From NCBI GenBank assembly GCA_038231275.1, contig JBBRLQ010000003.1, forward strand, positions 300,340-364,339: DNA of 64,000 nt, written 5' to 3'. Shown here in pieces: positions 25,718-58,177 of the stretch (within the stretch, counting starts at the first letter, position 1; the number at the start of each line of letters is the position of its first letter). This DNA comes from Polyangiales bacterium (lineage in GTDB: Bacteria; Myxococcota_A; Polyangia; Polyangiales; Polyangiaceae). The position numbers and the translations under genes are program-made. The notes beneath the pieces were generated by a model, which saw only the letters and a list, made by a program, of their open reading frames with translations, was not told the origin of the DNA and ran no database searches.

Positions 25718-25724
25718 CGTCCCC

Positions 25725-37147: not shown

Positions 37148-38135
37148 CGTGCGCGCCAGGGCCGTCGGTCTCCTCAGCTTCGTTCTCGCGACGGCCGCGC
37201 TGCCGGCCGCCGCGCAACCTCGCGACGCGGCAGGGGCCGAGGTGCTCTACCGCGCGGGGCGTGAGGCCGCGCGGCGCGGCGACTGGGCGACCGCCTGCGC
37301 GAAGCTCGCGGAGAGCCAGCGCCTCGATCCGGCGCCCGGGACGCTCCTGAACCTCGCCGACTGCGAAGAGCACCGCGGCCACCTCGCGCAAGCGTGGCAA
37401 GAGTTCGTGCAAGCGCAGTCGCAGCTGCCGAAGGGCGACTCGCGCGGCCCGTACGCGAAGAGCCGCGCGGACGCCGTCGAGAAGAGGCTGCCGCACCTCA
37501 GCGTTCGCCTCGAGGCCGGCGTGCCCGCGGGGACGCACGTCGTGCGCGACGATCAAGAGCTCGGCGCTGCGTCGCTCGGCGTCTCGATGCCCGTCGATCC
37601 GGGCGATCATGTCCTCCTCGCGCGCGCCGACGGGCACATCGACGGTCGCGCGCAGGTCACGCTCGCCGAAGGCGAGTCGCGTGAGATCACGCTCGCCCTC
37701 GGACCTCTGAGCACCGTCACGCCGGCCGTACCCGTCGCACGTCCTGCGATCGGCGCTCCCGCGACGATGCCCGCGCCGCCGACGACGTACACGCCGGTCG
37801 TTCCGCCGGAGAAGAAGGGGGCGCCGACGTTCGCGTACGCGCTCCTCGGCGTCGGCGCGGTGGGCATCGGCGTTGGAACCGTCGCCGGCGTGCTCGCGCT
37901 GTCGCGCGCAGGCACGGTGAAGGACGCGTGCGGCCCCGACTACAAGACGTGCACCCCCGCGTCGGTCGACGCCGCGAAGGACGGCAAGACGTTCACGACG
38001 GCGAGCACGATCGGCTTCGTGGCGGGCGCGGTCTTCGCGGGCGCGGGGCTCTACTTCTTGCTCGCGCCCTCGTCGTCGTCGAAGACCGCGCTCACCGTCG
38101 CGCCGAACGGAGCCGCGCTCTCGGGGGCATTCTGA
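37148..38135 (+). CDS. secreted/membrane-anchored hypothetical protein with N-terminal TPR-like region and C-terminal TM helix
   Basis: GTG start. Signal VRARAVGLLSFVLATAALPAAAQP. C-terminal FVAGAVFAGAGLYFLLA. Stop overlaps the ATG of the RCC1 gene (TGATG). Confidence 0.55.
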
Positions 38136-39463
38136 TGCGCGTTCGCAGCTTCTCCCTCGTCTTCGCGCTCCTTCCGATCGCGAGCGCTGCACCCCTCGCC
38201 GGGTGCGGGCTCCTCGTGGGCGTCGACTGGGATCGCGTCGCGCAAACCGACGCAGGGAACACCGTCTATCTGCCCGACGGCGCGCCCGCTCCGCCTGGCT
38301 ACATCCCGCCCGGCACCGATGGCGGAGGCGACGGCGGAGATGGCGGAGGAGTCGGCGGCGACAGCGCTCCTCCGACGTGCTCGCCTCCGAAGATCACCTG
38401 CGTGCAGGGATGCTGCGACGACGACGTCGATCCGGGCCTCCCGACCGCGGTGACCGCCGGACAGAGCAACACGTGCGCGGTGACCTCTACCGGCAAGGTC
38501 CGCTGCTGGGGCTCGAACGTCGTCGGACAGCTCGGGCGCGGCTCCGGCCCTGACTCGCTCGTCCCCAAGACCGCCTATGGAATGCCCTCGGGCGCGACGC
38601 AGGCGATCATCGGCTCCGCGCACGGGTGCGCCGTCGTCGGCAACCTGGTCGGATGTTGGGGCGCCAACGGCAGCGGACAAGTCGGCTTCGACGGCACCCC
38701 CGCGTCGCTCGGCCTCGAGACGCCCGGCCGCGTCCAGAAGATCACAGGCAGTGTCATCACCCTCGCCGTCGGCTCGAATTTCAGCTGCGCCACCGTCGAC
38801 GGCACCGCGTACTGCTGGGGCGACAACGCCGACGGCCAGCTCGCGACCGATCCGAGCACCTACCGCTCGAGCACGCCGCTCACGATCGCGCAGCTCGGCT
38901 CCGGCGTTCAGTCGGTCGGCGCCGGGAACAACGAAGCGTGCGCGGTCGTCGCGGGCGGTGGCGTCACGTGTTGGGGCGGCTCGAACAATCCTCCTACGCC
39001 GGTCGCCGGAATCACCGGCGCGAGCAAGATCGCCGTCGCGCCCCTCTTCAAGTGCGCGCTCGCCGGCGGCACCGTCCTCTGCTGGGGGGACAACTTCTAC
39101 GCCGAGCTCGGAAACAACTCGTCCGACTGGGTCACGCCGAAGCCGCCGACCGGCTTGCCCACCGACGTCACCCAGCTCGCCATCGGCGGCACGCACGGCT
39201 GCGCGCTCTCGTCGGGCGAGATCTGGTGCTGGGGCAACAACCCCTACGGCGAGCTCGGGCGCGATCCCGTCAGCGTCTCGAAGGCGCTCCCCGCGAAGGT
39301 GCCCGGCGTCACCGGCGTCATCGGCATCGCCGCCGGCGATAACCACACGTGCGCGCTCCTCGGCAACAACACGCTCAAGTGCTGGGGCAGCAACGGCGTC
39401 GGTCAGCTCGGAAACGGCACGAAAGACAGCGGTCCCACGCCGGTCACGGTCACCTGGCCGTAG
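38135..39463 (+). CDS. RCC1-repeat beta-propeller lipoprotein
   Basis: MRVRSFSLVFALLPIASAAPLAGC lipobox. At least seven repeats of C(A/W)GxNxxGQLG. Confidence 0.8.
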   Translation: MRVRSFSLVFALLPIASAAPLAGCGLLVGVDWDRVAQTDAGNTVYLPDGAPAPPGYIPPGTDGGGDGGDGGGVGGDSAPPTCSPPKITCVQGCCDDDVDPGLPTAVTAGQSNTCAVTSTGKVRCWGSNVVGQLGRGSGPDSLVPKTAYGMPSGATQAIIGSAHGCAVVGNLVGCWGANGSGQVGFDGTPASLGLETPGRVQKITGSVITLAVGSNFSCATVDGTAYCWGDNADGQLATDPSTYRSSTPLTIAQLGSGVQSVGAGNNEACAVVAGGGVTCWGGSNNPPTPVAGITGASKIAVAPLFKCALAGGTVLCWGDNFYAELGNNSSDWVTPKPPTGLPTDVTQLAIGGTHGCALSSGEIWCWGNNPYGELGRDPVSVSKALPAKVPGVTGVIGIAAGDNHTCALLGNNTLKCWGSNGVGQLGNGTKDSGPTPVTVTWP

Positions 39464-39524
39464 ACCTGGGCGCAGACCTGGCCGTCGCCGCGAAAAAGGG
39501 TGATACCGTCGGTTTTGCCGCCGC

Positions 39525-42305
39525 ATGGTCAAGCGCAAGGTCTCCCTCAACGGCGACGGTCCGAGCCCGGGCACTCTCGGCGCGGGGGACAAGACCGCGC
39601 GTGACGGCGCGAGCGCGGCGCCGTCGAACGTCGTCCTCGAGCTGTTCTTCGACACCGGTCTCGTCTTCCACGAGGTGCCGCTCCCGAACGGCCTTCCCGA
39701 CATCGTCAGCGGCTTCATGGTGATGAAGGACGCCGTCCAGCGCGGCGGCGCCGACACCTTCAGCGTGCGTCGCGCCGCCGCGGGCGAAGAGCCCGACGTC
39801 GAGGTCAGCGCGGTCGAGCACCTGTCGGAGCTGATGAACCGCTGGCTCCCGGTGCCCTACCAGCTCTCGTGCCCGTACGCCGTCCAAGTGTTCTTGTCCG
39901 GCAGCGACGAGGGCGTGCGCGCGATGCTCGCGATCGACACGTACGCCGAGCCCGACTCGAAAGGACGTCACCTCGATCCGAAGATCGACGAAGGCCGCCC
40001 GTTCCGTCCGCTCGATCGCACCGAGCACGCGCAGTTCCTCGACCAGACCGAGACGCGCGAGCTCGTTCGCAAGCTCGAGAAGACCGGGATGGAGAAGGCG
40101 CTCTTCAAGGTCGCCGCGCTCCTCGAGACGATCGGACCGATGCTCCCGCGCCTCCAGCTCCACACGCTTCAGTCGCGCCCGCAGATCCCGGTGTCGCTCG
40201 TCGTCGACTTCGGCAACTCACGCTCGACGGCGGTGCTCTGCGAGGCGCGCGAGAAGGGGATGTTCGCCATCCCGCTCGAGATGCGCTCGTCGCAGAATCC
40301 GTTCCTCGTTCACGAAGAGACGTTCGACTCGCGCGTCACGTTCCTCCCGAGCGCGTTCGACAAATCGGTCTTCCCGGTCGGCGTCGCCGAGTCGTTCGCG
40401 TCGCCGTCGATCGTGCGCATGGGCCGCGAAGCGCTCGATCGCGCGCTCGAGACGCCGCACCGCTACCAGTGCACCCTCTCCGGCCCCAAGCGCTATTTGT
40501 GGGACCACCGCCAGACCGACGACCGCTGGTATTTCGCGGCAAAACAGGACGCCGAGTACAAACCCGTCTTCGGGCGCATCCTCAAGTACGTCCCCGAGGA
40601 GCACGGCGGGCTCATGCTCCGCCAGGACGGCCCCGCGGTCCCCGCCGATCCGCGCTACGCCCCGCGCGCCGTCATGCTGTTCGCCGTCGCCGAGATCCTG
40701 GCGCAGGCCTACGCCCAGATCAATTCGCCATCCTACCGCGCCTTCCAGGGCAAAGAGCAGAACGGGCGCGTCCTCAAGCACGTCGCGTTCACCTTCCCGT
40801 CGGCGATGCGCAAAGAGGAGAAGGACGTCTACGAGGCGCTCGTCCGCAACGCCGTCATCCTCGCGTCGTACGTCCTCAACATCCGCCCCGAGCACCAGCC
40901 CAACTTCACGCCCGACGGTGGGCAGGGGCGCTACGACGATTTTCTCTTCGTCGACGAGGCCCTCGCCGCGCAGATGGTCTACGTCTTCCAGGAGGTCTCG
41001 CAGAGCTACTCCGGCAGCATGGAGGACTTCGTCGGCGTCTACGGCCAGAAGCCGGGCTCGGTGCGCATCGCGTCGGTCGACATCGGCGGCGGCACGAGCG
41101 ACGTGATGATCGCCGAGTACGAAGACAAGATGGCCGGCGCCGGCACCAGCCTGTCGATCAAGAAGCTGTTCCAGGACGGCGTCTCGATCGCCGGCGACGA
41201 GGTTTGCCGCGCGATCGTCGAGGACGTGGTCTTCTCGCAGATCCTCCAGCAGCTGCCCACGGCCGGCGCGCGCGCGAAGCTGGTGCATCTCTTTGGCGAG
41301 GGCGACGCCGGGCACGGACACTCGTGGCGAACGCTGAAGGCCAAGCTGGTCCCGTATTTTTGGCTGCCCCTCGCGCGCTGCTACTGGGCGCTCGCCGAGG
41401 GGTTCGAGATCCCCGAGCACAACGACGAGAAGCTCTACAGCGTCGACGAGATCTTCCGCGTCTTCCAGAGCCCCGCGTACTCGCACGCCGTCCTCGCCGA
41501 GGCCGATCGCTTCCTCGCCGAGACCGTCCCCGAGTTCCCGGGCCTCCTCAATTTGTTCTTCCGCATGGGTCGCGCCGAGGTCGAGCGCGCGATCGAGGGC
41601 GTCCTCCGCGAGCCGCTCCGTCGCTACGCCGACATCATCGCGCAGTTCGACGTCGATCTCCTCGTCCTCGCGGGCCGCACCTCGGCGCTCAAATGCGTGC
41701 GCAACATCTTCGTCCGCGAGATGCCGGTCGCCGCGCCGCGCATCAAAAACATGTCGAGCTACAAAGTCGGCGACTGGTACCCGGCGAAGTGGCAGGCCCT
41801 CGGCTTCATCAAAGATCCGAAATCGACGGTCACAGCGGGCGCGACGGTGCTGCACCTCGCGAGCAAGAATCGTCTGCCCGGGTTCTCGCTCGACGGCATC
41901 ACGGAGCTCGTACAAAAGCCGATCTACGGCCTTTATCAAGACGTCGAGCCGCACATCAGCTACGCGAACGAGCTCTTCAAGAAGGGCAAAATCTCGGACC
42001 CGGTGCCGTACACGACCGGGATGGTGATCGGCTTCCGCAACGTCGCGTCACAAGAGATGGACGGCTCGCCGCTCTTCGAGGTGCACCCCGCGAACAAAGA
42101 CGTCGAGCAGGCGCTCCTCGAAGATCGCGTCGCGCTCAAGTTCGAGCTGACCGACAAGGGGCAGATCTTGGTCAACGACGTCGTCTCGCAGAAGGACGTG
42201 TACTCGTTCGGCAAGGACGACTTCACGCTCATGCTGAAGACGGTGACGAGCGATCGCTACTGGCTCGACACCGGCGTCTTCAAGAACGTGACGAAGTACC
42301 TCTAG
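39525..42305 (+). CDS. large actin/Hsp70-superfamily (ASKHA) ATPase-like protein; architecture reminiscent of the SrfB family
   Basis: 926 aa. VVDFGNSRSTAV (phosphate-1 DxGxS/T) and ASVDIGGGTSDVMIAE (phosphate-2 DxGGGTxD) are spaced as in actin-fold ATPases. No signal peptide. Confidence 0.55.
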   Translation: MVKRKVSLNGDGPSPGTLGAGDKTARDGASAAPSNVVLELFFDTGLVFHEVPLPNGLPDIVSGFMVMKDAVQRGGADTFSVRRAAAGEEPDVEVSAVEHLSELMNRWLPVPYQLSCPYAVQVFLSGSDEGVRAMLAIDTYAEPDSKGRHLDPKIDEGRPFRPLDRTEHAQFLDQTETRELVRKLEKTGMEKALFKVAALLETIGPMLPRLQLHTLQSRPQIPVSLVVDFGNSRSTAVLCEAREKGMFAIPLEMRSSQNPFLVHEETFDSRVTFLPSAFDKSVFPVGVAESFASPSIVRMGREALDRALETPHRYQCTLSGPKRYLWDHRQTDDRWYFAAKQDAEYKPVFGRILKYVPEEHGGLMLRQDGPAVPADPRYAPRAVMLFAVAEILAQAYAQINSPSYRAFQGKEQNGRVLKHVAFTFPSAMRKEEKDVYEALVRNAVILASYVLNIRPEHQPNFTPDGGQGRYDDFLFVDEALAAQMVYVFQEVSQSYSGSMEDFVGVYGQKPGSVRIASVDIGGGTSDVMIAEYEDKMAGAGTSLSIKKLFQDGVSIAGDEVCRAIVEDVVFSQILQQLPTAGARAKLVHLFGEGDAGHGHSWRTLKAKLVPYFWLPLARCYWALAEGFEIPEHNDEKLYSVDEIFRVFQSPAYSHAVLAEADRFLAETVPEFPGLLNLFFRMGRAEVERAIEGVLREPLRRYADIIAQFDVDLLVLAGRTSALKCVRNIFVREMPVAAPRIKNMSSYKVGDWYPAKWQALGFIKDPKSTVTAGATVLHLASKNRLPGFSLDGITELVQKPIYGLYQDVEPHISYANELFKKGKISDPVPYTTGMVIGFRNVASQEMDGSPLFEVHPANKDVEQALLEDRVALKFELTDKGQILVNDVVSQKDVYSFGKDDFTLMLKTVTSDRYWLDTGVFKNVTKYL

Positions 42306-42319
42306 AGAAGGAGTCGCGC

Positions 42320-42940
42320 GTGAACGATCCGGCGATTCGCACGCTCCTCGACGCGCTCGCCGGCGTCGTCGACGCGGAGGCGCTGAAGGCCGAGATGCGC
42401 GCGTACCTCGGCGATGCGCCGGTCGCGTCCGAGAAGCCAGCGCCGGCGGAAGGGAGCGGGCGCTTTCTCTTGCAGGACATCTTGGACGACTCGATCTTGG
42501 GCGCGAAGTCCGGGGACAAATCGTTCCCGCTGCGCCTCCTCTTCAGCGAGCTCGCGACGCGCGCGGGTGAGCAAAAGGAGGAGACCGCGTTCACGCTGCT
42601 CTGCGCGCTCAACGTGTACTTCCGCGTCGACGCCGACGACGAAGTGAAGATGCGCCTCGGCCACGAGGTGAGCCGCCTCTATTACCGCTTCATGGACGAG
42701 GCGCGCCCCGAGGGGCTCGCGCCGGTGCAAGTGTCGGGGCTCGTCGCGGCGCTTCTCTCGACCGAGCTCTCCCGCGTTCGCCTCGAGGCGGTCGATCACG
42801 CCGCGACGTTCGACTCGCAGACGCACGAGCGCGCCCCAGGCTCCGATCCCGCCTCCGGCACGGTGCGGCGGCCCCTCTCGTTCTTGTGCCGCGTCACGCA
42901 GACGGGGATGGTCCGCATCAAGGCCAGCGTCGCGACCTAA
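42320..42940 (+). CDS. hypothetical protein (206 aa), apparently translationally linked to the upstream ATPase-like gene
   Basis: GTG start 14 nt after the upstream stop with AGAAGGAG SD. Balanced composition. Confidence 0.5.
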   Translation: MNDPAIRTLLDALAGVVDAEALKAEMRAYLGDAPVASEKPAPAEGSGRFLLQDILDDSILGAKSGDKSFPLRLLFSELATRAGEQKEETAFTLLCALNVYFRVDADDEVKMRLGHEVSRLYYRFMDEARPEGLAPVQVSGLVAALLSTELSRVRLEAVDHAATFDSQTHERAPGSDPASGTVRRPLSFLCRVTQTGMVRIKASVAT

Positions 42941-42993
42941 ATCGAGAAAAAGACGACCGACGGCTTCACAAACCCCTGCGCGCGGCGTCTGCC

Positions 42994-43665
42994 ATGGCGA
43001 GGGGGGCAGCCTTGGACGACGATCGACCATCCGAGCCCCCGGCCATCGGCAAGCTCGTCATGCTGCGCCCGCAGCCGGGGCTGCCGAACCGGGAGGACAG
43101 CGAAAAGAGAATCCGCACGCTCGTAGAGGCGGGGGACCTCGGCACCGCGGTGACTGGGTCGCTCCGGCTCTACGGGGCCGAGGTGTATGGGTTCATCGCC
43201 GCGCTCATCGAGGTGCCGGCGTTCGCGCGCCAGGTGTACGTGGCGATGGGGGAGCTGGTGTGGGCCGGCCTCCCGATGTTCGAGTGGCGCTGTGACTTGC
43301 GTACGTGGATGTACGGCATCGCGCGGCGGTCGATCGCCAGATACCGCGCCGAGTACGGATCGCCGACCAACGTGCTCTTCACCGAGGCGCCCCGGGCTCC
43401 GAGCTCGGGGCCGGTCCGCCAAAAGGCGTTCCGCGGCCTCGTCGCTGGCCTCCGCCGGAAGCTCGCGCCCGAAGAGCGGGAGCTCCTCATCTTGCGCGTG
43501 GACCGCCGGCTCTCCTGGTGGAGCATCGCCGTCACGAGCATCGGCGAGGGCGCCGGGGACGACGCGCTCGCCCGCGAAGAGCGCCGCCTCCGGGTGGCCC
43601 TCGCCTGTCTTCGGGAGAAGCTCGCCCAGATCGCCAAGGAGCACGGTATCCTCGCCGCGCGGTAA
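42994..43665 (+). CDS. ECF-family RNA polymerase sigma factor
   Basis: FEWRCDLRTWMYGIARR (region 2.x) and ELLILRVDRRLSWWSIA (region 4 HTH). Stop lies 5 nt before the kinase ATG. Confidence 0.7.
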   Translation: MARGAALDDDRPSEPPAIGKLVMLRPQPGLPNREDSEKRIRTLVEAGDLGTAVTGSLRLYGAEVYGFIAALIEVPAFARQVYVAMGELVWAGLPMFEWRCDLRTWMYGIARRSIARYRAEYGSPTNVLFTEAPRAPSSGPVRQKAFRGLVAGLRRKLAPEERELLILRVDRRLSWWSIAVTSIGEGAGDDALAREERRLRVALACLREKLAQIAKEHGILAAR

Positions 43666-43670
43666 GGCCG

Positions 43671-45752
43671 ATGAGAGGGGACAACGCAAACCGGACGCCC
43701 GAGGTTCTCTCCTCGGGCGGGGAGTACGACGACTTCCTTCAGGCGGTCGCGCACGCGCCGGCGCGCAAGCCTCCGCCGGACGTGCCGCTCGGGAGCCGCT
43801 GGGGCGACGGGGATCGCTACATCCTCGAGCGCCGCCTCGGTCGCGGCGGAATGGGCATCGTGTACGCCGCGACGGACACGCTCCTCGGCCGGCTCGTCGC
43901 GCTCAAGGTGCTCGACGGTCAGGTCGCCAGCGAGGTCGGCGCGCACGCGCTCCTCCGTGAGGCGCGCCTCGCCGCGCGGATCGAGCACGAGCGCGTCGCG
44001 CGCGTCTACGACGTGGGAGAGCACGAGGGGTCGCTCTTCGTCGCGATGGAGTTCGTGCGCGGGCAGACGCTGCGCACGTGGATGACGGGGCGCCGCGTCG
44101 AGCGCCCGCACGCGATCTCGATCGCGACGCAGATCGCCGAGGGCCTCGCCGCGCTCCACGAGACCGTCGTGATCCACCGGGATTTGAAGCCCGAAAACGT
44201 GATGCTGTCCGAGCAGGGCGGCGTGAAGCTCCTCGATTTCGGGCTCGCGCGGCACGCGGCGGAGGCGGCGGAGGCGGCAGCGGCCAGTGCAGCGGGGGTG
44301 GCAGGGCAGGGCGAGGCGCGGCCCGAGACGCGCCGCAGCGTCATCTCGGGCACGCCTGGATACATGGCGCCGGAGCAGCGCAACGGAGCGCCGAGCGATC
44401 CGCGCATCGACGTCTACGCGCTCGGCGTCGTCCTCTACGAGCTCGTGTGCGGCGAGCGTCCATTTCGCGGGCGCACGCTCGAAGAGATCTTCGCAGCAGC
44501 GCAGCGCCCGCTCCTCTTCGACGGGGAGTCGTGGCAGGGCACCGCGCCGGCGCTTCGCGCGTTCATCGCAAAAGCGGTCGCCGTGGATCCGCGCGAGCGC
44601 TACGCGGACGGAGTCTCCGCGCTCGTGGCCCTGCGTGCGCTCGTGGGTCCCTTCGCCGCAGTCCCGATCCCGGAGACGTTCTCGCAGCTGGGCATCGCGC
44701 CGACGATCTCCGTGCCGTACGAGCCGCAAGCGCCCGCTGCGCCTGCCAAGCGCCGCTGGAAGACTTGGAAGACGATGGTCGCCGCAGCGCTCGTCGTTGG
44801 CCTCGGCGTCGGCGTCCTCACGGGCGCGCGCGCACGAAGGAGCGGCCTCGCGCTTCTGCCTCCGCCGCCGGGCATGGCGTGGATCGACGTCGGCACGATC
44901 GAGGTCGGCCGCTCGCGCGCGCAGATCGAGCGCGAATGCGCGGAGATCGGCCCGACCTGCAACAAAGAGCGGATGGAGCGCGAGATCCCCGCCGCCTCCG
45001 CGATCGTCGCGCCGTTCGCGATCGATCTCCACGAGCTTACCAACCAGGAGCTCGCCGACGCGCTCACCAACATGAACCCGATGCTCGTCGTGAGCGACGA
45101 CGACGAGGAGCACTACCCGCGCTACGTGAAATGGGCGCAGGTCGTGGGGCGCAGCGAGGTGCTCGTCGATCTCCATCGGCGTCGCGGCGGCGTGCAGTTC
45201 ACCGAGAGCAAGCGCGCGATGCGGCCGACCAAGAGCTTCGAGCCGGCCCCGGGGCACGAGCGTGAGCCTGCCGTGCAGGTGACGTGGTTCGGCGCGCGCG
45301 CGGTGTGCGCGGCGCTCGGCAAGCGCCTGCCGACGGAAGACGAGTGGGAGGCGGCGGCGCGCGGTCGGGAGGATCGCCGCTTTCCGTGGGGAAACGAGCT
45401 CCCGCGCTGCAACGGCGTCGTCGTTCCGCGTGACGGGCTCGTGCCGATGGATCCGTCGTGCCCGGAGTCGGTCTCGCTCCGCGCCGTCGGCGAAGCGTCG
45501 CAGGACGTGACGCCACAGGGCGTCCTCGACCTCGGCGGCAATGTCACGGAGTGGACCGACTCGGCGTACGTCGAGGGAAACCGCGCCGAGCGCGTGGAGT
45601 CGACGCGCGCCGATCTCCCGAAGGTGATTCGCGGGGGCTCGTGGGCGGCGTCGCTCCTCGCCCGCACGAGCGGCCGAACGCGCCGCGCCGCCGACTTTCT
45701 CGGTGGGAACTTGGGCTTTCGGTGCGCCGTGAGCCGCGACTCGAAAAAATAG
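43671..45752 (+). CDS. Ser/Thr protein kinase, single TM, with C-terminal FGE-sulfatase (SUMF1-like) domain
   Basis: RRLGRGGMGIVYAATD, VALKVL, HRDLKPENVM, DFGLAR and GTPGYMAPE are Hanks subdomains. TM WKTMVAAALVVGLGVGVLTG. C-terminal RGGSWAAS...GFRCA is the FGE-sulfatase motif. Confidence 0.85.
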   Translation: MRGDNANRTPEVLSSGGEYDDFLQAVAHAPARKPPPDVPLGSRWGDGDRYILERRLGRGGMGIVYAATDTLLGRLVALKVLDGQVASEVGAHALLREARLAARIEHERVARVYDVGEHEGSLFVAMEFVRGQTLRTWMTGRRVERPHAISIATQIAEGLAALHETVVIHRDLKPENVMLSEQGGVKLLDFGLARHAAEAAEAAAASAAGVAGQGEARPETRRSVISGTPGYMAPEQRNGAPSDPRIDVYALGVVLYELVCGERPFRGRTLEEIFAAAQRPLLFDGESWQGTAPALRAFIAKAVAVDPRERYADGVSALVALRALVGPFAAVPIPETFSQLGIAPTISVPYEPQAPAAPAKRRWKTWKTMVAAALVVGLGVGVLTGARARRSGLALLPPPPGMAWIDVGTIEVGRSRAQIERECAEIGPTCNKERMEREIPAASAIVAPFAIDLHELTNQELADALTNMNPMLVVSDDDEEHYPRYVKWAQVVGRSEVLVDLHRRRGGVQFTESKRAMRPTKSFEPAPGHEREPAVQVTWFGARAVCAALGKRLPTEDEWEAAARGREDRRFPWGNELPRCNGVVVPRDGLVPMDPSCPESVSLRAVGEASQDVTPQGVLDLGGNVTEWTDSAYVEGNRAERVESTRADLPKVIRGGSWAASLLARTSGRTRRAADFLGGNLGFRCAVSRDSKK

Positions 45753-45764
45753 GAGAATCGAACG

Positions 45765-46121
45765 ATGTCCGCGAAGAAATCGAAGAAGACCACCAAGAGC
45801 CACGCGATCCTCTCTCTTCGCCCGCGCCCGTTGCCTCCGGGCAAGCGCGCGACGATCGCGACGAAGTCCGGCTTGCCGACGTGCATCGTCCTCGCGCCGG
45901 TCGGCGTGGGCCCCAAGGGCGGGATCGCCTTCGCGATCGCGCTTCGCGTCGGTCCGTCCGCCGGCAAGGTGACCTTCGTGCCGCGAGGCAAAGAGACGCT
46001 CGTCGTGGACGCGAAGGAGAGCCCGTCCGCCGCCGCGCTGCAGGCCTTCCTGCGCAAGGTCTGGGACAAGAAGGGCGGGGAGCCGCCGATCGTCGTCGAC
46101 AACAGTCACGGCCACTCCTAG
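45765..46121 (+). CDS. hypothetical small basic protein (118 aa)
   Basis: MSAKKSKKTTKSHAIL... SD AGGAGAA upstream. 12-nt gap from the kinase and 8-nt gap to the peptidase-like gene. Confidence 0.5.
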   Translation: MSAKKSKKTTKSHAILSLRPRPLPPGKRATIATKSGLPTCIVLAPVGVGPKGGIAFAIALRVGPSAGKVTFVPRGKETLVVDAKESPSAAALQAFLRKVWDKKGGEPPIVVDNSHGHS

Positions 46122-46129
46122 GCGCACCC

Positions 46130-47158
46130 ATGAGCCAACGCTGGTCGCTCCTCCTCTACATGACCGCGAGCCCGCGCCTCGCGCCGCACGCGCAGGACAC
46201 GTTGAAGCGCCTCGCCGCCGCGCAGCCCCCCACTGGGCTCGATATCTCGGTGCAGCTCGACGCGCGCGGAAAGAAAAAGCCGGCCCGCTACCGTATCGTC
46301 AATCGACGGGCCGTCCAGGAGCCGTCCTCGTGGCGGTACCGTCCGCGCGTCGCGCTGCGCGACTTTCTCGATTGGGGCCTCCCGAAGGGGAAAAAAGGGC
46401 GGTCCGCGCTCGTCATGTGGGGCGAGGGGGGCGGCTGGATTTACCCCGCGGGCCTCTACGACGCGCCGGGTCGCGCGCTCATCGACGCCCAGCTCCACGA
46501 CGCGATCGCAGGATCGCACGCGGGCCGTGTCGACGTGCTCGGCTTCGACGCGTGCCTCATGGGCATGGTCGAGATCCTCTACGGCGCGCGCGATCTCTGC
46601 CGCGCGCAAGTCTCGTCCGAGACGTTCGTCCCGCTCTCGGGGTGGCCGTACCGCGCGATGCTCGAGGCGCTGGTGCGCAAGCCCGCGACGACCGGCGTGG
46701 CGTGGGCCGAGCGCGTCGTGCCGTGCGTGAAGACCGTGCGCGCGTCGTCGACGTTGGCCGCGTTCGACGCCGCGCGCGCCGACGCCGTGGCCGCCGCCTT
46801 TCGCGTGCTCGCGCGAGAGCTCCGGCGCGTCCCCGCCGCTGCCCGCCCCGAGCTCGCCCGCGCCCGCGCAGACATGCTGCACGTCGGCAACCCGTACTTC
46901 GTCGACGTCCTCTCGATGCTCCGCTCGATCGAGCGCTGCGTCGCCGATCGCAAGGTCGCCGCCGCCGTCATCAAGGTGCGCCGCGAGATCGTCCGCGCGC
47001 GCCTGGCGGTCGCCTCCTCCGGCTCCGACAACCGCGCGATGACCGGCCTCTCGATCTTCTTCCCCGAGACGAAGACGACTTTCCTCGCGCCGTATCAGGA
47101 GCTCGCGTTCGCCAAGAAGACCGGCTGGGGGGCGTTCCTCACCCGCTACCTCAAATGA
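46130..47158 (+). CDS. clostripain-like (peptidase C11 / caspase-fold) protein; expected catalytic His position appears to be Glu
   Basis: LVMWGEGGGW ...(about 50 aa)... VDVLGFDACLMGMVE. The FDACLMG block matches the C11 catalytic-Cys motif. The usual HG(x)G block reads GEGGG. No signal peptide. Confidence 0.55.
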   Translation: MSQRWSLLLYMTASPRLAPHAQDTLKRLAAAQPPTGLDISVQLDARGKKKPARYRIVNRRAVQEPSSWRYRPRVALRDFLDWGLPKGKKGRSALVMWGEGGGWIYPAGLYDAPGRALIDAQLHDAIAGSHAGRVDVLGFDACLMGMVEILYGARDLCRAQVSSETFVPLSGWPYRAMLEALVRKPATTGVAWAERVVPCVKTVRASSTLAAFDAARADAVAAAFRVLARELRRVPAAARPELARARADMLHVGNPYFVDVLSMLRSIERCVADRKVAAAVIKVRREIVRARLAVASSGSDNRAMTGLSIFFPETKTTFLAPYQELAFAKKTGWGAFLTRYLK

Positions 47159-47801
47159 GACCGCGCTCTTTGCCGCGCGCGTGCAGGCGCTCGCGCACCA
47201 GCTGAAAGCGCTTTCGCAGGCGCGCGGCGTGCTGCGCGAGCGCGCGATCGTCGAGCGTGCCACCGTCGGGCACGAGGATCGCTGCCACGTCCCGCCACGC
47301 GAGCGCGCGGTCCACGCGGAGGACCAGCAGCGCGCGATCGTCCTCCGGTAGCTCGTCGCGCAAGCGCTGCAGCTCGCTGCGCTTCTCGGTGCGAAGGGCC
47401 GAAGCGGTCTCGGTGCGGATGCGCGTCGCCAGCTCCTCGACCTCCGTGAAGCTCGCCACGTGCACCTCGTGCCGGGCGTGCCGCGCTTCCCGCCGTCGCA
47501 CGCTCACCGACGCGTTGCGCGCGAGGAGGTAGCACCACGTCCGCACCGAGCACCGCCACTCGAAGGTCGCGAAGGTCTGCCACAGGCGCTCCGCGAACAA
47601 GGAGAACGCGTCGTCGGCGAAATCGGCGTCTTGGTGGAGCGCCACGAGGAACCCGAACACCTCGGCGCCATGCCGTTGCAACGTCGTCGCCAACGCCGCC
47701 CGATGATCTCCGGCCGCCCAGGCGGCGCGGATCGCGGAGTCGTCGTCCTCGCGGCGCCCTTCGGCCATGATCCGGCGAACGGTACCATTTTCGCGCGCCA
47801 T
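47151..47801 (-). CDS. ECF-family RNA polymerase sigma factor (paralog of 42994..43665)
   Basis: FEWRCSVRTWCYLLARN and ALLVLRVDRALAWRDVA. 3' end overlaps the 3' end of the C11-like gene (convergent). Confidence 0.7.
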   Translation of the reverse strand: MARENGTVRRIMAEGRREDDDSAIRAAWAAGDHRAALATTLQRHGAEVFGFLVALHQDADFADDAFSLFAERLWQTFATFEWRCSVRTWCYLLARNASVSVRRREARHARHEVHVASFTEVEELATRIRTETASALRTEKRSELQRLRDELPEDDRALLVLRVDRALAWRDVAAILVPDGGTLDDRALAQHAARLRKRFQLVRERLHARGKERGLI

Positions 47802-47830
47802 CGTTCTGCGCCGATGTGGGTTAGATTGGC

Positions 47831-49188: not shown

Positions 49189-49848
49189 ATGGCCTACCGC
49201 GACGAGCTCGAGGCGCTTCGGAGCCGCGAAGAGGCCCTCGTCCGTGAGCTCGAAGAGACGCGACGCCTCCGCGTGGCGAGCGAGCGGCGCACCCTCCCGG
49301 TCCTCGAGCAGCTCCGTGTGGCGAGCCCCTGTCCGTCGAAGTGGGAGGACATGATCGGCGACGAGCGGGTCCGCTTCTGCGGATCGTGCGCGAAGAACGT
49401 GTACGACCTGTCGGCGATGAGCCGCGCCGAGGCCGAAGACTTCGTCGCGCGGCACTCTCCGTCGGAACGCGCGGGAAAAGAAGGCGTTTGCGTCACGTTT
49501 CGCCGCCGCGCCGATGGCAAGGTGCTGACGGCCGACTGCCCCGTCGGCGTGCGTCGTCGTCGCTTCGGGATCGGCGTCATCGCGTTCGCCGCCGCCGCCA
49601 GCGCCGCGGCGTTCGGCGTGGTCGTAGAAGATCGCGACTCGGGCGTCGCGCGGCCTAGCCTCGAGCGGCACTGCCCCGCCCACAAGACCGCCGATCACAG
49701 GACCGAGAGGAGTGATGAGTCGCCGTCGATCGGCGACGATGGCAACACCGTCACGACGGGGCTGATCATGGGCGATCCGCCGAAGCCGAGCGGACGCACG
49801 ACGGGCTGCCTCTGCCAACCCGGCGATCCGCTCTGCAGCTGCCTCTAG
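49189..49848 (+). CDS. hypothetical protein with N-terminal coiled region and Cys-rich zinc-ribbon-like segment
   Basis: 219 aa. CPSKWEDM...RFCGSCAKNVYD and C-terminal CLCQPGDPLCSC. 3' end overlaps the kdpD 3' end. Confidence 0.5.
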   Translation: MAYRDELEALRSREEALVRELEETRRLRVASERRTLPVLEQLRVASPCPSKWEDMIGDERVRFCGSCAKNVYDLSAMSRAEAEDFVARHSPSERAGKEGVCVTFRRRADGKVLTADCPVGVRRRRFGIGVIAFAAAASAAAFGVVVEDRDSGVARPSLERHCPAHKTADHRTERSDESPSIGDDGNTVTTGLIMGDPPKPSGRTTGCLCQPGDPLCSCL

Positions 49849-52565
49849 GAGAGGGACGGCGGCGCCAGCTCCGGCGGATCGCCTTCGAGCGGCAGCGTGA
49901 AGCGAAAGCGCGCGCCTCCTCCGTCTCGGTTCTCCGCCCAAATCCGACCGCCGTGCGCCTCGACGACGCCCTTGCAGATCGCGAGCCCGAGCCCCGCACC
50001 GCCGGTCTTGCCCTCGCGCGTCAGTCGGAAGAATTTCTCGAACACGCGCGTGAGCTCGTCGGCGGGCACGCCGGGACCGCGATCGGCGATGTCGACCGTG
50101 ACGACGCGTTCCTTCCCCTCGCCGCTCGCGCGCGCGACGAGCTCGATAGGGCTCCCCTGCGGCGTGTACTTCGCTGCGTTCTCGAGGAGGTTGATGAGGA
50201 CTTGCTCGAGCAGCACCGCGTCGATCGGCACGAGCGGAAGACCGGTGGGGAGATCGACCTTCACCTCGCGCTGCCCCAGGCGATCCTCCACGCGCCCCAG
50301 GGCGGCGCCGACGATCTCCTCGAGTGGCTGCCATTCCTTGGTGACGCGGAGCGCGCCGGACGCGAGTCGGGTCATGTCGAGGAGGTTTCGAACGAGCCGC
50401 GTGAGGCGGAGCGTCTCCTCGTGGATCGTCTCGAGGAGCTCGCGGCGGGCGTGCGCCGGCAACGTACCTTCGTCTTCCAAGAGGCTGCTCGCCGCGCCGG
50501 TGACGACGGCGAGTGGCGTCCGCAGATCGTGCGAGACGGAGCTGAGGAGCGAGCTGCGTAGGCGCTCGGCCTCGATCTCGAGCTGCTTCTTCTGCGCATC
50601 GCCCGCGAGCTGCACGCGCTCGATCGCCGCGGCCACCTGGCTCGCGAAGAGCTCGAGCAACCTGCGCTGCTCCGGATCGACGAAGCGCCGCGGATCCGTC
50701 GGCTGCATCCCGAGCACGCCCACCTTCCCCTGCGGTCCGCGGAGGGGGAGCGCCAGCGCGTCCGCGCTCGGCAACGTGTCGGTGGCGAGCCCCGCCGCCT
50801 GCTCGTGCTCCCACACCCACGCGACCACGCCCGCGACCTTTTCGTCGGGAACGAACGACCACGGATCTTCGAAGGTCGATTTTGGCGTGCCGTCGGGCCC
50901 CGGCAAGAGGATGGCGACGCGGCTGTCGAAGATGTCGTGGAGGTGACGCGTCGCAGCGGCGACGAGAGGCTCCATCGAACGTGCGATCGCCAGATCGCGG
51001 GTCATCGCATAGAGGATCGCCGTTCGCTGCTCGCGTTGCCGTGCGGCGTCGGCCTGCTCGCGAATCCGCTTGGCCAGCCCGCTGATCACGAGCGCGACGA
51101 CGAACATGACGCCGAACATCACGACGTGGCGGAAATCGGTGACCGCGAAGCTGAAGTACGGCGGCACGAAGAAGAAATCGACGGTGAGGACGCTCAGGAC
51201 CGTGGCCAAGAGCGACGCGGCGTATCCGAAGCGCATCGCGACGAGCACGACCGCGAGGAGGTGGACCATGACGATGTCCGGGAGCTGCGACTGCCCGAAC
51301 AGCAGCCAGCTCGCGAGGACCGCGCACGCCACCATCGCCGCGCTCGCGAAGTAGGGCACCGCCGACGTTCGCGAAGAGCTCGTCGTGTCCGCGCGCGTGC
51401 GGGCGGCCGCGCCGTCGCCGTCCGCGTCCGACTCACCGGAAATGACATAGACGTCGATCCCCTCGCTGGCGCGGACGATCTGGTCGAGGAACGACGCGCG
51501 CAAGATCTCCCGCCACCGCGGGTAGGTCGGACGGCCGACGACGATCTTGGTGACGTTGCGCGAGCGCGCATAGCGCAGCGTCTCTTCTGCGGCGTTGGCC
51601 CCGCTGAGCGTCACGACCTCCGCGCCGAGCTGCTCGGCAAAGCGAAGGTTGGTCGCGACGCGCGCGCGATCCGCGCCTGGCAGCCGGAGCGCGGCGGGCG
51701 TCTCGATGTACGCCGCGATCCACTCCGCACGAAGCTCCGTCGCCATGCGCCGCGCCGCGCGAGCGAGGCGAATCGAGGAGGGGCTCGGGCTCAGGCACAC
51801 GAGCAGCCGCTCTGCGACCGGCCACGCGCGATCGATGCCGTGCGCGCGCTGGTATACGCGCATCTGCTCGTCGACGCGCGCCGCCGTACGACGCAAAGCC
51901 AGCTCGCGAAGCGCGATGAGGTTCCCCTTCTGGAAGAAGTGATCGATCGCGCGCCGCGCCTGCTCGGGCAGATACACCTTGCCGTCCGCGAGGCGCTCGA
52001 GCAGCTCGTCCGGCGGCAGATCGATGATGCGCACGTCGTCGGCGGCCTCGAGCACCGAGTCCGGCACCGTCTCCCGCACGACGACGCCGGTGATCTGCGC
52101 GACGACGTCGTTCAGGCTCTCGAGGTGCTGGACGTTGAGCGTCGTGTAGACGTCGATGCCGGCGCCCAAGATCTCCTCGACGTCCTGCCATCGCTTGGGA
52201 TGGCGCGAGCCCTCGACGTTGGCGTGCGCGAGCTCGTCGATCAGTACGATCCCCGGCTTTCGCGCGAGTATGGCGTCGGTGTCGAGCTCCTCGAGCGGCA
52301 CGCCCTTGTGGTCGATCTTCTTCTTCGGCAGCAGATCGAGGCCGATGCAGAGCGCGGCGGTGTCGTAGCGGCCGTGCGTCTCCACGACGCCGATCACCAC
52401 GTCGCGCTTCAAATCGCGCTCCGATCGCGCCGCCTCGAGCATCGCGTACGTCTTCCCGACGCCCGGCGCGGCGCCGAAGAAGACGGTCAGCTTGCCGCGC
52501 TTGGCCCGCGACGCCTCGGCCTGCACACGGCGCAGGAGCTCGTCGGGATCCGGACGCGCGACCAT
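49845..52565 (-). CDS. kdpD: osmosensitive K+ channel sensor histidine kinase KdpD
   Basis: N-terminal GKLTVFFGAAPGVGKTYAML (KdpD P-loop domain). Usp-like region. 4 TM. SVSHDLRTPL H-box. C-terminal HATPase (GLGLAICKGVVEAHGG). Confidence 0.9.
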   Translation of the reverse strand: MVARPDPDELLRRVQAEASRAKRGKLTVFFGAAPGVGKTYAMLEAARSERDLKRDVVIGVVETHGRYDTAALCIGLDLLPKKKIDHKGVPLEELDTDAILARKPGIVLIDELAHANVEGSRHPKRWQDVEEILGAGIDVYTTLNVQHLESLNDVVAQITGVVVRETVPDSVLEAADDVRIIDLPPDELLERLADGKVYLPEQARRAIDHFFQKGNLIALRELALRRTAARVDEQMRVYQRAHGIDRAWPVAERLLVCLSPSPSSIRLARAARRMATELRAEWIAAYIETPAALRLPGADRARVATNLRFAEQLGAEVVTLSGANAAEETLRYARSRNVTKIVVGRPTYPRWREILRASFLDQIVRASEGIDVYVISGESDADGDGAAARTRADTTSSSRTSAVPYFASAAMVACAVLASWLLFGQSQLPDIVMVHLLAVVLVAMRFGYAASLLATVLSVLTVDFFFVPPYFSFAVTDFRHVVMFGVMFVVALVISGLAKRIREQADAARQREQRTAILYAMTRDLAIARSMEPLVAAATRHLHDIFDSRVAILLPGPDGTPKSTFEDPWSFVPDEKVAGVVAWVWEHEQAAGLATDTLPSADALALPLRGPQGKVGVLGMQPTDPRRFVDPEQRRLLELFASQVAAAIERVQLAGDAQKKQLEIEAERLRSSLLSSVSHDLRTPLAVVTGAASSLLEDEGTLPAHARRELLETIHEETLRLTRLVRNLLDMTRLASGALRVTKEWQPLEEIVGAALGRVEDRLGQREVKVDLPTGLPLVPIDAVLLEQVLINLLENAAKYTPQGSPIELVARASGEGKERVVTVDIADRGPGVPADELTRVFEKFFRLTREGKTGGAGLGLAICKGVVEAHGGRIWAENRDGGGARFRFTLPLEGDPPELAPPSLS

Positions 52566-52612
52566 CGACGGACTTATAGCAGGCCGACGATCGCGCCGCG
52601 CCGCGCGCTCCG

Positions 52613-53113
52613 TCAGCGGGAGGTTTGTGTCAAGGCGCGCGCGCGCCGCAACGCTTCACGCGCAGACTCGGGGCTGGCGGCGCGCACGTCGATCACGACA
52701 GTCGTGCCTGCGGTGCGCTCGTCCATCTGGAGGCGGCCGATCTCGGGTGGGCAGACCTCGCCGTCCGCGCACGGGACGCGGCGCGTGAGGTGGCACTCGA
52801 GGACATGCCAGATCGACGCCGGCGACACGCCGTCGATCTGGCGCACGTACACGGTCGCCCCTTCCAGCCTCGGCGGCTCCTTCTGCGAGACCTCGATCTT
52901 GAGCGGCTCTACGCGAACAATCGCGTCCTTGAAGCCGAGCGGTCCCCCGGCGCTTGCGTCCTCCCAGACGTCGGCGCACGCGGTCACATCGGCGCGGCCC
53001 GGGGTCGTCGCCGGCCGATCGCACGCGGCGATCGCGCACCACGCGATGGACGAGGCGACGGCCACGACGCGGCTTGCTAGGGTGATTGCATGGATCGCGG
53101 ACGTCGAGCCCAC
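52613..53113 (-). CDS. small hypothetical lipoprotein
   Basis: GTG start. Signal ...VVAVASSIAWCAIAACD. GC3 above 90%. The N-terminal extension in the track ORF (to 53605) is Gly/Arg-rich antisense of the plus gene. Confidence 0.5.
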   Translation of the reverse strand: MGSTSAIHAITLASRVVAVASSIAWCAIAACDRPATTPGRADVTACADVWEDASAGGPLGFKDAIVRVEPLKIEVSQKEPPRLEGATVYVRQIDGVSPASIWHVLECHLTRRVPCADGEVCPPEIGRLQMDERTAGTTVVIDVRAASPESAREALRRARALTQTSR

Positions 53114-53620
53114 GGCCTTCCGTCGATCGCGCGCGTCGCCCCTTGCGCGATTCTCGCCGCGTGCGCCGCGTGCGCCGCCTTCGTCCCCGACAGTCGAACA
53201 CCGACCGATCGCGCGCGCGAGCTGGACGCGAAGTGCGTCGGCGCCAGCGAGGCCGACGTCGCGCCGCTCCTCTCCGCCGCCAACGTCGACTCCGTCGAGC
53301 CCGCGTACTCCTACGTGAGCGGCGGTCCCAACGGCCGCGACGCGCACCTCCGCGGCGCGCGCATCCGCGTGAAGCCCCTCCCCGGCGCCACCCGCGAGTC
53401 GATCTCGCGGAGCCTCCAGTGCCACCAAGCGCGGGTCGTCACCGGCGCCGTCACCGCGGCCGCCGCCGATCCCTACACGCTCCCCGCCCGCTGGCTCACG
53501 ATCGAGGTCGAGTCCGAGTCCGACGCGTTCGCGGTCCTCGCCCTTACCGACGATCTCGCCGATGCGCGTCGCGTCCTCGAGCGTGCGCGGTTCTTCGCGG
53601 GGCATCGCCGGTCACCCTGA
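53090..53620 (+). CDS. small hypothetical lipoprotein (divergent; 5' end overlaps 52613..53113)
   Basis: MDRGRRAHGLPSIARVAPCAILAACAAC lipobox. GC3 about 95% across 176 codons. Confidence 0.55.
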   Translation: MDRGRRAHGLPSIARVAPCAILAACAACAAFVPDSRTPTDRARELDAKCVGASEADVAPLLSAANVDSVEPAYSYVSGGPNGRDAHLRGARIRVKPLPGATRESISRSLQCHQARVVTGAVTAAAADPYTLPARWLTIEVESESDAFAVLALTDDLADARRVLERARFFAGHRRSP

Positions 53621-53899
53621 GCCGCCGGCGTCGGCCGGGCCGTCGGGCAGCCCTGCATCGACCGCGGGGCATCCGGCGCCGTTGCAATAGGGGTTGCCGC
53701 TCTTCGTCGGATCGGAGGGGCAGCAGTAATTCTCGGCGCACGTCGAGGGCTGCTGGCAAGTGAGCCCCTCGTCGCAGTCGTTGTGGCTGAGCGCGGGATT
53801 GCACCGCTCTCCTTCGCGACCTCCATCGCACCCGCTCTCGGCGAGAACGAGCGCGAGCGCGACGGAGACCAGCGATACGGCGATGTTCGTTCGGTTCAT
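53612..53899 (-). CDS. small Cys-rich secreted protein (about 95 aa, 10 Cys)
   Basis: MNRTNIAVSLVSVALALVLAESGC then CDGGREGERCNPALSHNDCDEGLTCQQPSTCAENYCCPSDPTKSGNPYCNGAGCP. 9 nt downstream of the OM-protein gene. Confidence 0.55.
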   Translation of the reverse strand: MNRTNIAVSLVSVALALVLAESGCDGGREGERCNPALSHNDCDEGLTCQQPSTCAENYCCPSDPTKSGNPYCNGAGCPAVDAGLPDGPADAGGSG

Positions 53900-53907
53900 G
53901 GGGGGCC

Positions 53908-55368: not shown

Positions 55369-55438
55369 CCTCGAAGGCTACGGACGGGCGCGTAAAGACA
55401 GCGTCAAGACGGGCCGCGTAACCGCTAAGAAAGAGTTA

Positions 55439-55852
55439 ATGCCGCAGGCCGGACGCACTATGCTCGGCACCATCATGAGGGGAAACACAAACGCCGATCT
55501 CATGGGCTTGTCGCTGGAGGAGCTCGTCTCGGAGCTCGAAGCGTTCTACGAGCTCTCCACCGACATGGTGTCCGTCTCCTCCGCCGACGGCCGCTTCCGC
55601 CGCGTCAACCGCGCATGGGAAAAGGCCATCGGCCACCCCGCCGGCGAGATCGCCGGCAAGCGCTGGCTCGACTTCGTGCACCCCGACGACGTGCAGAAGA
55701 CGATCGACGCGGCGCGCAGCTTGTCGGCGTCGGATCTGGCGGAGTTCCAGAACCGCTACAAGCACCAGGACGGCCACTGGGTCACGCTCTCGTGGCGGTC
55801 GACGGCGTGGTCGGGCGGGCTCACCTACGCGATCACCCGTGTCGTCGGCTGA
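55439..55852 (+). CDS. stand-alone PAS-domain protein
   Basis: 137 aa. LEELVSELEAFYELSTDMVSVSSADGRFRRVNRAWEKAIGHPAGEIAGKRWLDFVHPDD is a PAS fold. Confidence 0.65.
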   Translation: MPQAGRTMLGTIMRGNTNADLMGLSLEELVSELEAFYELSTDMVSVSSADGRFRRVNRAWEKAIGHPAGEIAGKRWLDFVHPDDVQKTIDAARSLSASDLAEFQNRYKHQDGHWVTLSWRSTAWSGGLTYAITRVVG

Positions 55853-55897
55853 TCCAATTTCCCGGTAGTCGCAACCATTCCGCGTCATCATGACGCG

Positions 55898-57154: not shown

Positions 57155-57175
57155 CGGTGGTCGCGTGCTTCCCCT

Positions 57176-57343
57176 TTAGCGCATCCGAACGCGCCCTCGT
57201 GCGAGCGCACACGGCAAGAATACCAGCGCCATCGTCGCCAGCGTGTCGATCGCGCCGAAAGTCTGCCCACCGGACAGCGCCGTGAGGAGGTGAATGAAGC
57301 TCACGACCCACAAGACCGTGAACGGCATCACGAGATCGCGCAT
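57176..57343 (-). CDS. possible 55-aa small hydrophobic protein
   Basis: MRDLVMPFTVLWVVSFIHLLTALSGGQTFGAIDTLATMALVFLPCALARGRVRMR. GC3 about 84%. Sits in the convergent gap between the CPA gene and kdpE. Confidence 0.3.
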   Translation of the reverse strand: MRDLVMPFTVLWVVSFIHLLTALSGGQTFGAIDTLATMALVFLPCALARGRVRMR

Positions 57344-58159: not shown

Positions 58160-58177
58160 TACCCGTGATCATCGTTC

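Follow-up and report, generated by a model that had tools for sequence, protein, structure and literature searches.

Two kinds of described system bear on the locus considered here. The first, srfABC, is a three-protein system of Salmonella, Xenorhabdus, and Haemophilus, whose function is debated and which published work describes as a tripartite toxin (PMC6950479; bioRxiv 10.64898/2026.09.18.752743). The second is formed by extracytoplasmic function (ECF) sigma factors that are associated with Ser/Thr kinases. ECF43 sigmas, such as those of the pairs EcfP/PknT and EcfK/PknS, are directly activated by phosphorylation, and in several kinase-adjoining ECF groups without an anti-sigma factor, phosphorylation offsets missing acidic contacts with RNA polymerase, either in region 2.2 or in the linker (PMC7826278; PMC13147305). 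Genes resembling both systems lie within a 10.6-kb run of eight plus-strand genes, closed by one convergent minus-strand gene, in a 64,000-nucleotide stretch of DNA from a Polyangiales bacterium (GenBank assembly GCA_038231275.1, contig JBBRLQ010000003.1, positions 300,340 to 364,339), referred to below as the window. An initial annotation, made from the letters of the sequence, had suggested that the run could be one signalling or conflict module combining an SrfB-like ATPase, a caspase-fold protein, a kinase, and a sigma factor. The comparisons described here lead to a different reading, which is probably correct: the run consists of three unrelated co-directional units, namely a TPR-like/RCC1 pair, the genes for SrfB and protein D of a split srf-type operon, and an inserted cassette for a kinase-controlled ECF-type sigma factor. 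The genes are labelled A, B, C (SrfB-like), D, sigma E, kinase, P118, C11-like, and sigma I, their coordinates are collected in Table 1, and L-numbers denote compared loci or contigs.

Gene order separates the cassette from the srf genes. Every protein of the window was compared by tblastn with 78 SrfB loci and the 10-kb flanks of each, a sample that includes a subset of 43 loci from related Polyangia. No homologue of sigma E, P118, the C11-like protein, or sigma I was found anywhere in these flanks, and matches to the kinase were scattered, with no co-linear gene for a Ser/Thr kinase carrying an FGE-sulfatase-like domain adjoining SrfB. Myxobacteria are rich in kinase genes, so scattered kinase matches are to be expected. 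In the closest relative, L079, whose SrfB is 90% identical to that of the window, the stop codon of gene D is followed after 15 nt by the start of the SrfA-like homologue, itself 71% identical overall. The right junction of the window retains the ancestral TAGATTGG...ATG spacer, the junction sequence TAGATTGGCGTGACAGCGATG aligning with the ancestral stop-plus-spacer TAGATTGGGCGGACAAGGATG of L079. Taken together, the spacing in L079 and the junction match indicate that the intervening ~4.9 kb is a lineage-specific insertion between D and the SrfA-like gene. That the operon instead contained the cassette from the start, and that every other lineage has lost it, is exceedingly improbable. The cassette does run in the same direction as the operon genes, with little space on either side, but independent and precise losses would be needed in the Labilithrix, Polyangiaceae, Sandaracinaceae, and Sorangium lineages, at ~36 loci, and copies of the cassette also occur in contexts that have nothing to do with srf.

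The two borders of the insertion share the microhomology TA(A/G)AT(C/T)G. No convincing direct or inverted repeats were seen at the borders, and Pfam scans of the cassette and its neighbours revealed no integrase or transposase. Similar octamers occur at the borders of cassette copies, TAAATCGA on the left and TAGATTGG or TAGATTGA on the right (window 42938-42945 and 47820-47827; L080 at about 1260 and about 6120), and could represent a target-site or microhomology footprint, or chance. To the left of the left border in L080, some 10 nt are likewise similar to the 3' end of gene D; a comparison of the sequence 5' of the L080 cassette with gene D, made to detect a remnant of that gene, showed likeness over only ~18 nt.

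Beyond the window, relatives of the C11-like protein were looked for in a collection of 5.8 billion proteins, and metagenomes were scanned in addition, the latter yielding one further short contig (L086). Every contig that bears a C11-like gene shows sigma E, the kinase-FGE gene, P118, the C11-like gene, and the convergent sigma I in a single arrangement, with P118 present in every copy and sigma I always at the same position; on partial contigs the cassette is seen only as far as the contig reaches. Its surroundings differ. The SrfA-like gene again lies 3' of the cassette in L080-82 (C11-like protein 78% identical to that of the window), here with no D on the 5' side. In L083 (61%) the cassette stands between a DUF7009 gene and an unrelated small gene, and in L084 and L085 (both 64%) it is followed by a membrane-protein gene that appears RND-efflux-like by eye. 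Judged by gene order, the cassette is a conserved unit present in at least three other genomic contexts.

These observations bear directly on the proposal of a single module made up of all eight genes. The window has a G+C content of ~69%, which fills raw listings of open reading frames with spurious frames. Gene calling by third-position GC, together with a window-trained codon log-likelihood caller, recovered all eight plus-strand genes and the convergent gene, as originally proposed, with the correction that the run starts at 37149 and not one nucleotide earlier. The gaps between consecutive plus-strand genes are -1, 61, 14, 53, 5, 12, and 8 nt, the start of B overlapping the stop of A (TGATG) and the D-to-sigma E gap becoming 71 nt instead of 53 if sigma E starts at TTG 43012. 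Across the window the median same-strand gap is 25 nt and 26 of 35 gaps measure 61 nt or less, so that tight co-directional spacing is no signal in itself here; the cluster is directly preceded by a run of 12 genes on the minus strand. A single signalling or conflict module made up of the eight genes would be consistent with their common direction and small gaps, and with the location of some distant, His-intact C11 homologues beside genes for Hsp70-like ATPases (L087). It is nevertheless very improbable: the gene order is not kept in the 78 SrfB loci or in L079, the cassette occurs without SrfB in L080-85, short gaps are the norm in this genome, and PADLOC returned nothing for the module beyond generic kinase-domain similarity. 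The initial annotation had itself named a lack of gene-order conservation in related genomes as grounds for rejecting its proposal, and the eight genes are not conserved as one unit. An interpretation as a defence system was also dropped, since among the nine proteins PADLOC matched only the kinase, through generic kinase-domain similarity to the PD-T4-6, mad6, and MkoA models, and none of the other eight.

The second unit belongs to an operon of wide distribution. The SrfB-like protein scores 381 bits against PF07520 (cut-off 27.1), covering profile positions 220-991, and has hundreds of homologues that are 60-68% identical over their full length in metagenome-assembled genomes of Labilithrix, Polyangiaceae, Sandaracinaceae, and Sorangium. 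A sequence-profile search of the PDB with the SrfB alignment gave no meaningful matches, and a comparison of folds was therefore required. The AlphaFold2 model is of moderate quality (pLDDT 64); its top 50 Foldseek matches in the PDB are all members of the Hsp70 family (Hsp70, Hsp110, DnaK; best E 3e-12), with low full-chain TM-scores of 0.2-0.3. The sequence carries the ASKHA-type motifs DFGNSRS, DIGGGTSD, and LAGRTS. The predicted structure thus supports the original assignment of an actin-fold ATPase and makes it more precisely Hsp70-like. The protein has phosphate-1, phosphate-2, and adenosine-type motifs in common with Hsp70/DnaK-type ASKHA ATPases, but differs from them in its low identity (~10-12%), its large insertions, its additional N- and C-terminal domains, and the lack of any identified J-domain or GrpE partner. 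In L028, L034, and L042 the SrfB-like gene aligns in at least two frames, which suggests frameshifts or assembly errors; in L042, whose label is Alphaproteobacteria, it is broken into many fragments and may be a pseudogene.

Across the 78 SrfB loci, the only recurrent neighbours of SrfB are D and the SrfA-like, SrfC-like, and Sel1 products, contiguous and in constant order. Homologues of the other three come directly after SrfB and D in ~36 of 43 loci from related Polyangia, the full contiguous set being found in Labilithrix, Polyangiaceae, Sandaracinaceae, and Sorangium metagenome-assembled genomes, and an independent metagenomic contig has the identical layout, its SrfC family called by Pfam. 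D follows SrfB directly in 39 loci, is absent from the sampled canonical Proteobacterial SrfB-SrfC loci, and has no match in Pfam, NCBIfam, or PADLOC. The SrfA-like homologue comes directly after D in ~20 loci at more than 50% query coverage, in addition to L079, the SrfC-like gene directly follows the SrfA-like gene in relatives, and the Sel1 gene follows the SrfC-like gene in 25 Polyangia loci. On the strength of this synteny, SrfB and D are the first two genes of a Polyangia-wide five-gene operon, SrfB, D, SrfA-like, SrfC-like, and Sel1. In 58 of the 78 loci the SrfC-like gene adjoins the SrfB cluster without a break; in the window the two are ~17 kb apart, and two insertions divide the operon of this genome into three parts.

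The arrangement in Polyangia represents a variant form of srfABC. As in the known system, SrfB-like and SrfC-like proteins above their Pfam thresholds are encoded by genes that are contiguous in relatives, together with a membrane protein of SrfA layout (bioRxiv 10.64898/2026.09.18.752743). The order differs, being SrfB, D, SrfA-like, SrfC, Sel1 rather than A-B-C, two conserved genes are added, one for the 206-residue D and one for the Sel1 protein, and the first ~200 residues of the SrfB-like protein fall outside the Pfam model match. The SrfA-like protein consists of a conserved N-domain, a low-complexity linker, one transmembrane helix, and a C-terminal beta domain. Its matches to SrfA are weak (hhalign E 7e-4, probability 26%; NF040486 21 bits against a cut-off of 150, E 1.8e-4), the two proteins have the motif Y..x..V(I/L)xxWG in common, and the C-terminal domain, as read from the sequence, does not have the FLNGxW/four-Cys lipocalin signature. 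A KE-rich repeat (KKKEDEKKKEDEKKKEDE) precedes the transmembrane helix and a run of ~23 glycines follows it; in the L079 homologue the linker differs and the first 59 residues are identical.

Within the cassette, the two sigma factors are paralogues (34% identical, E 3e-30) and share the FEWRC motif, as originally proposed. Sigma I passes the TIGR02937 sigma70-ECF cut-off of 42.9 bits (49.1 bits) and keeps the acidic residues of region 2.2 (ADDAF). Sigma E reaches 15.2 bits in the same model, below the cut-off, and NCBIfam sigma models match it only at sub-threshold scores; neither sigma E nor any of its eight orthologues has a Pfam match, and the assignment of sigma E to the ECF-like sigma factors rests on its paralogy to sigma I. 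Translation of sigma E probably begins at TTG 43012, a codon that lines up with the ATG of the L080 orthologue and has a GAGGGG ribosome-binding site. The acidic residues of the DxxDxxQE type in region 2.2 are replaced (PAFARQVY, and AFAR(Q/D/E)VY among orthologues), and a short Ser/Thr/Pro-rich linker is conserved among orthologues. The sigma-I-type family comprises ~30 sequences from Myxococcota, and its members outside the cassette adjoin Pkinase genes in both contexts sampled (L091, L092). The kinase gene begins 5 nt after sigma E, and its product has a Pkinase domain (residues 51-311) with intact VALK, HRDLKPEN, DFG, and APE motifs, a transmembrane helix (368-386), and an FGE-sulfatase-like domain (401-686). 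The description of a membrane kinase with an extracytoplasmic FGE-sulfatase domain in the initial annotation is therefore borne out by both profiles and the helix between them, and the succession of ECF sigma and kinase holds as well, with the reservation that sigma E itself has no Pfam match.

This organization recalls that of kinase-associated ECF sigmas (ECF43, ECF59-62, ECF217, ECF267, and ECF283), in which, as here, the sigma gene lies directly 5' of the gene for a transmembrane Hanks kinase with an extracytoplasmic sensor domain, no anti-sigma factor is recognisable (none was detected in the cassette with Pfam or NCBIfam), and the acidic region 2.2 contacts are missing from the sigma. 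The cassette differs from these groups in that sigma E is too divergent to match Sigma70_r2, and in the addition of a convergent paralogous sigma together with the P118 and C11-like genes. Because the hallmark Thr of ECF43 is absent from sigma E, membership in ECF43 is not claimed, and only a mode of action is proposed. No relevant literature turned up on the combinations of FGE-sulfatase, kinase, and ECF, of Peptidase_C11 and Pkinase, or of SrfB and Hsp70.

Upstream of the first cassette gene lies the motif TCACAA-N14-CGTC, which has one exact match in the 64-kb window. In an alignment of the window with L080 and L083 that is 63% identical overall, its TCACAA and GCGTC blocks do not vary at all and are separated by 14 nt, and a transcription start site near 42996 would fit the placement of the ribosome-binding site and the TTG start of sigma E. 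The motif looks like an ECF-type promoter, probably autoregulated, that would give the cassette its own transcription signal. A scan of positions 36900-49300 for consensus promoters and terminators gave nothing above shuffled expectation.

The C11-like protein scores 76.8 bits against PF03415 (cut-off 25.8). Its structural model (pLDDT 84, pTM 0.87) has C11 peptidases as its ten best PDB matches in Foldseek (including 6mzo, 6n9j, 6nag, 9cip, and 3uws; TM-score ~0.7, E 3e-16), which confirms the family assigned from the sequence. Five close relatives were found, and with them the protein forms a clade of six. Compared with C11/clostripain peptidases (PmC11 3UWS, 6MZO, iotapain 6NAG, and clostripain 9CIP), it has the same fold and the catalytic Cys with its adjacent Asp in the FDAC block, Cys142 being invariant in 10 of 10 aligned sequences. 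In place of the catalytic His, all six clade members have Glu99 (WGEGGGW), the substitution noticed at the outset, whereas His is present in P0126-P0129 (HG) and in PDB 6mzo (WShGtGW). The stretch connecting the His and Cys positions is a shortened loop of low model confidence, the N-terminus reads ASPRL where others have GDN(N/D)L, and there is no signal peptide, so that the protein is predicted to be cytoplasmic. The longest invariant stretches in the clade, residues 97-110 and 134-144, are the two active-site blocks, and the site is thus under selection despite its broken dyad. P118, which has no match in Pfam, NCBIfam, or PADLOC, has four relatives among 1.84 billion representative proteins searched exhaustively with HMMER, none from an informative family. 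P118 and the C11-like protein are probably cassette-specific accessory or output proteins acting as non-proteolytic binding or regulatory partners; more specifically, they may act as a pseudo-protease with a binding or regulatory function, a peptidase with an unusual Glu/Cys site, or a factor resembling an anti-sigma.

One of these roles can be weighed further. If the C11-like protein were an active Glu/Cys peptidase that processes P118 or one of the sigmas, the cassette would work as a proteolysis-gated sigma switch. In a clade with overall identities of 61-78%, every member retains Cys142, Asp140, and the entire WGEGGGWIYPAGLY block, the C11 fold is intact in the model, and P118 always co-occurs with the C11-like gene, immediately upstream of it. 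Set against this, no clade member keeps the His that serves clan CD peptidases as general base, and the shortened loop is the one that carries the autoprocessing site in PmC11-type enzymes. We know of no clan CD enzyme with a Glu/Cys dyad, and proteolytic activity of this kind is improbable. Distant C11 homologues that retain the His occur in other surroundings: on L087 (4323-7239) one lies beside genes for an Hsp70/MreB-like ATPase, a protein with a weak CHAT match, and a trypsin-like protease, and on L089 (1815-6866) another lies beside a gene for a TPR-CHAT protein. A pairing of ASKHA ATPase and C11 protein therefore exists elsewhere, unrelated to the SrfB of the window.

For the inserted cassette, the most likely mechanism is one in which an extracytoplasmic cue would be sensed by the membrane kinase through its FGE-like domain, and the kinase would then phosphorylate the co-transcribed sigma E, and possibly sigma I. 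As sigma E has lost the acidic residues of region 2.2 that contact RNA polymerase, phosphorylation would license its binding to the enzyme, and transcription would then proceed from the TCACAA-N14-CGTC motif in front of the cassette, with P118 and the cytoplasmic C11-like protein (Glu99/Cys142) serving as accessory or output proteins.

Several points weigh against the division of the run into unrelated units with a kinase-controlled cassette as one of them. The cassette is known in ~6-8 copies, all on short metagenomic contigs. In contrast to ECF43 proteins, sigma E has neither the QTTA motif nor the conserved phospho-site Thr. The conservation of its two blocks argues that the C11-like site is still used for something, which could include catalysis. 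Transcripts from the srfB promoter, which points the same way, may read through into the cassette, and the position of the cassette directly 5' of the SrfA-like gene, both in the window and in L080-82, makes a lineage-specific functional link with the srf genes possible. One form of such a link would be that the cassette was recruited in this lineage as an srf regulator, sigma I or sigma E driving the divergent SrfA-like gene and the downstream SrfC-like gene, so that the insertion would amount to a functional rewiring. Only 38-56 nt separate the starts of sigma I and the SrfA-like gene in the two lineages, and canonical srfABC loci of Haemophilus and Xenorhabdus have been reported to be flanked by a gene for an FGE-family enzyme (bioRxiv 10.64898/2026.09.18.752743). 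In the Polyangiaceae locus L001 a gene for a Ser/Thr kinase with an FGE-like C-terminal domain (16934-19051) follows directly downstream of the Sel1 gene at the 3' end of the operon, an arrangement that may be coincidental. Recruitment is unlikely all the same, given the unrelated contexts of the cassettes in L083, L084, and L085, the ~36 srf operons that do without it, the absence of a TCACAA-N14-CGTC motif before the SrfA-like gene, and the chance that the window and L080-82 share one ancestral insertion. Also unlikely is the bolder proposal that the cassette is a previously undescribed signalling unit in which the C11-like protein, with a repurposed Glu/Cys site, and P118 act as scaffold, adaptor, or anti-sigma-like factors between the kinase and both sigmas, and that in this lineage it has inserted into the srf operon and controls it. 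The division into three unrelated units remains the best account of the run.

Table 1. Features of the gene run, the split srf-type operon, and the two insertions, in positions of the window.
Feature	Position	Strand	Basis or remark
Protein A, 328 aa	37149..38135	+	signal-peptide-like N-terminus, two C-terminal hydrophobic segments
Protein B, RCC1-repeat beta-propeller lipoprotein	38135..39463	+	RCC1-like domain E 3e-56, lipobox LAGC
SrfB-like Hsp70/ASKHA-fold ATPase (model-supported), 926 aa	39525..42305	+	PF07520 E 1e-113
Protein D, 206 aa	42320..42940	+	partner directly 3' of SrfB in Polyangia
Lineage-specific insertion of ~4.9 kb with five-gene cassette	42941..47822		between D and SrfA-like gene
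ECF-type promoter-like motif TCACAA-N14-CGTC	42966..42989	+	upstream of first cassette gene
Sigma E, divergent ECF-like, 217 aa	43012..43665	+	alternative start ATG 42994; paralogue of sigma I
Hanks-type Ser/Thr kinase with FGE-sulfatase-like domain, 693 aa	43671..45752	+	Pkinase E 2e-50, FGE-sulfatase E 5e-34
P118, small protein with basic N-terminus	45765..46121	+	8 nt upstream of C11-like gene
C11-like protein (clostripain-family, caspase-fold), 342 aa	46130..47158	+	PF03415 E 3e-21
Sigma I, ECF sigma factor, 216 aa	47151..47801	-	TIGR02937; convergent, 8-nt overlap with C11-like gene
SrfA-like membrane protein, 428 aa	47840..49126	+	third gene of ancestral srf-type operon
Second interruption, ~11 kb	49189..60227		splits SrfA-like from SrfC-like gene
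KdpD-like sensor kinase	49845-52565	-	second interruption
BBP2 porin	53908-55368	-	second interruption
PAS protein	55460-55852		second interruption
Na+/H+ exchanger	55898-57154		second interruption
OmpR-type regulator	57449-58159	-	second interruption
Kup K+ transporter	58320-60227		second interruption
SrfC-like protein (Virul_Fac), 864 aa	60263..62857	+	PF10139 E 4e-82; fourth operon gene
Sel1-repeat protein, 371 aa	62841..63956	+	PF08238; fifth operon gene

The remaining unit of the run, the TPR-like/RCC1 pair of envelope-protein genes, is separate and comprises local neighbours only. No homologue of protein A adjoins SrfB in the 78 loci; A is a local neighbour outside both conserved units, and B lies upstream of SrfB in the closest relative L079 alone (70% identity). 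Of the two lipoproteins originally proposed, B stands by virtue of its RCC1 match and lipobox, while A has no lipobox Cys and its TPR match stays below threshold (17 bits against a cut-off of 27). The genes of the second interruption suggest a function in K+ or osmotic homeostasis. Elsewhere in the window, a gene on the minus strand (21077-27305) encodes a multidomain protein of 1546 residues (NAD_binding_4 reductase, AMP-binding, PP-binding, and acyltransferase domains) beside a protein with a LarA-like N-terminal domain, and may mark a locus for lipid or fatty-alcohol biosynthesis. A further minus-strand open reading frame (33675-34316, 213 residues) aligns with the N6_N4 DNA methylase profile over just the final ~36 profile positions and may encode a truncated or divergent methyltransferase.

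Recognition of the insertion averts a false lead, the grouping of ATPase, caspase-fold protein, kinase, and sigma factor being an accident of that event. What it brings to light is a very rare kinase-plus-sigma cassette whose most conserved residues lie in an altered caspase-fold active site, which makes the cassette a candidate for studying how kinase-regulated sigma factors gain accessory regulators and how clan CD folds are repurposed. The srf genes, as the Polyangia-wide five-gene variant shows, are not confined to host-associated Proteobacteria.

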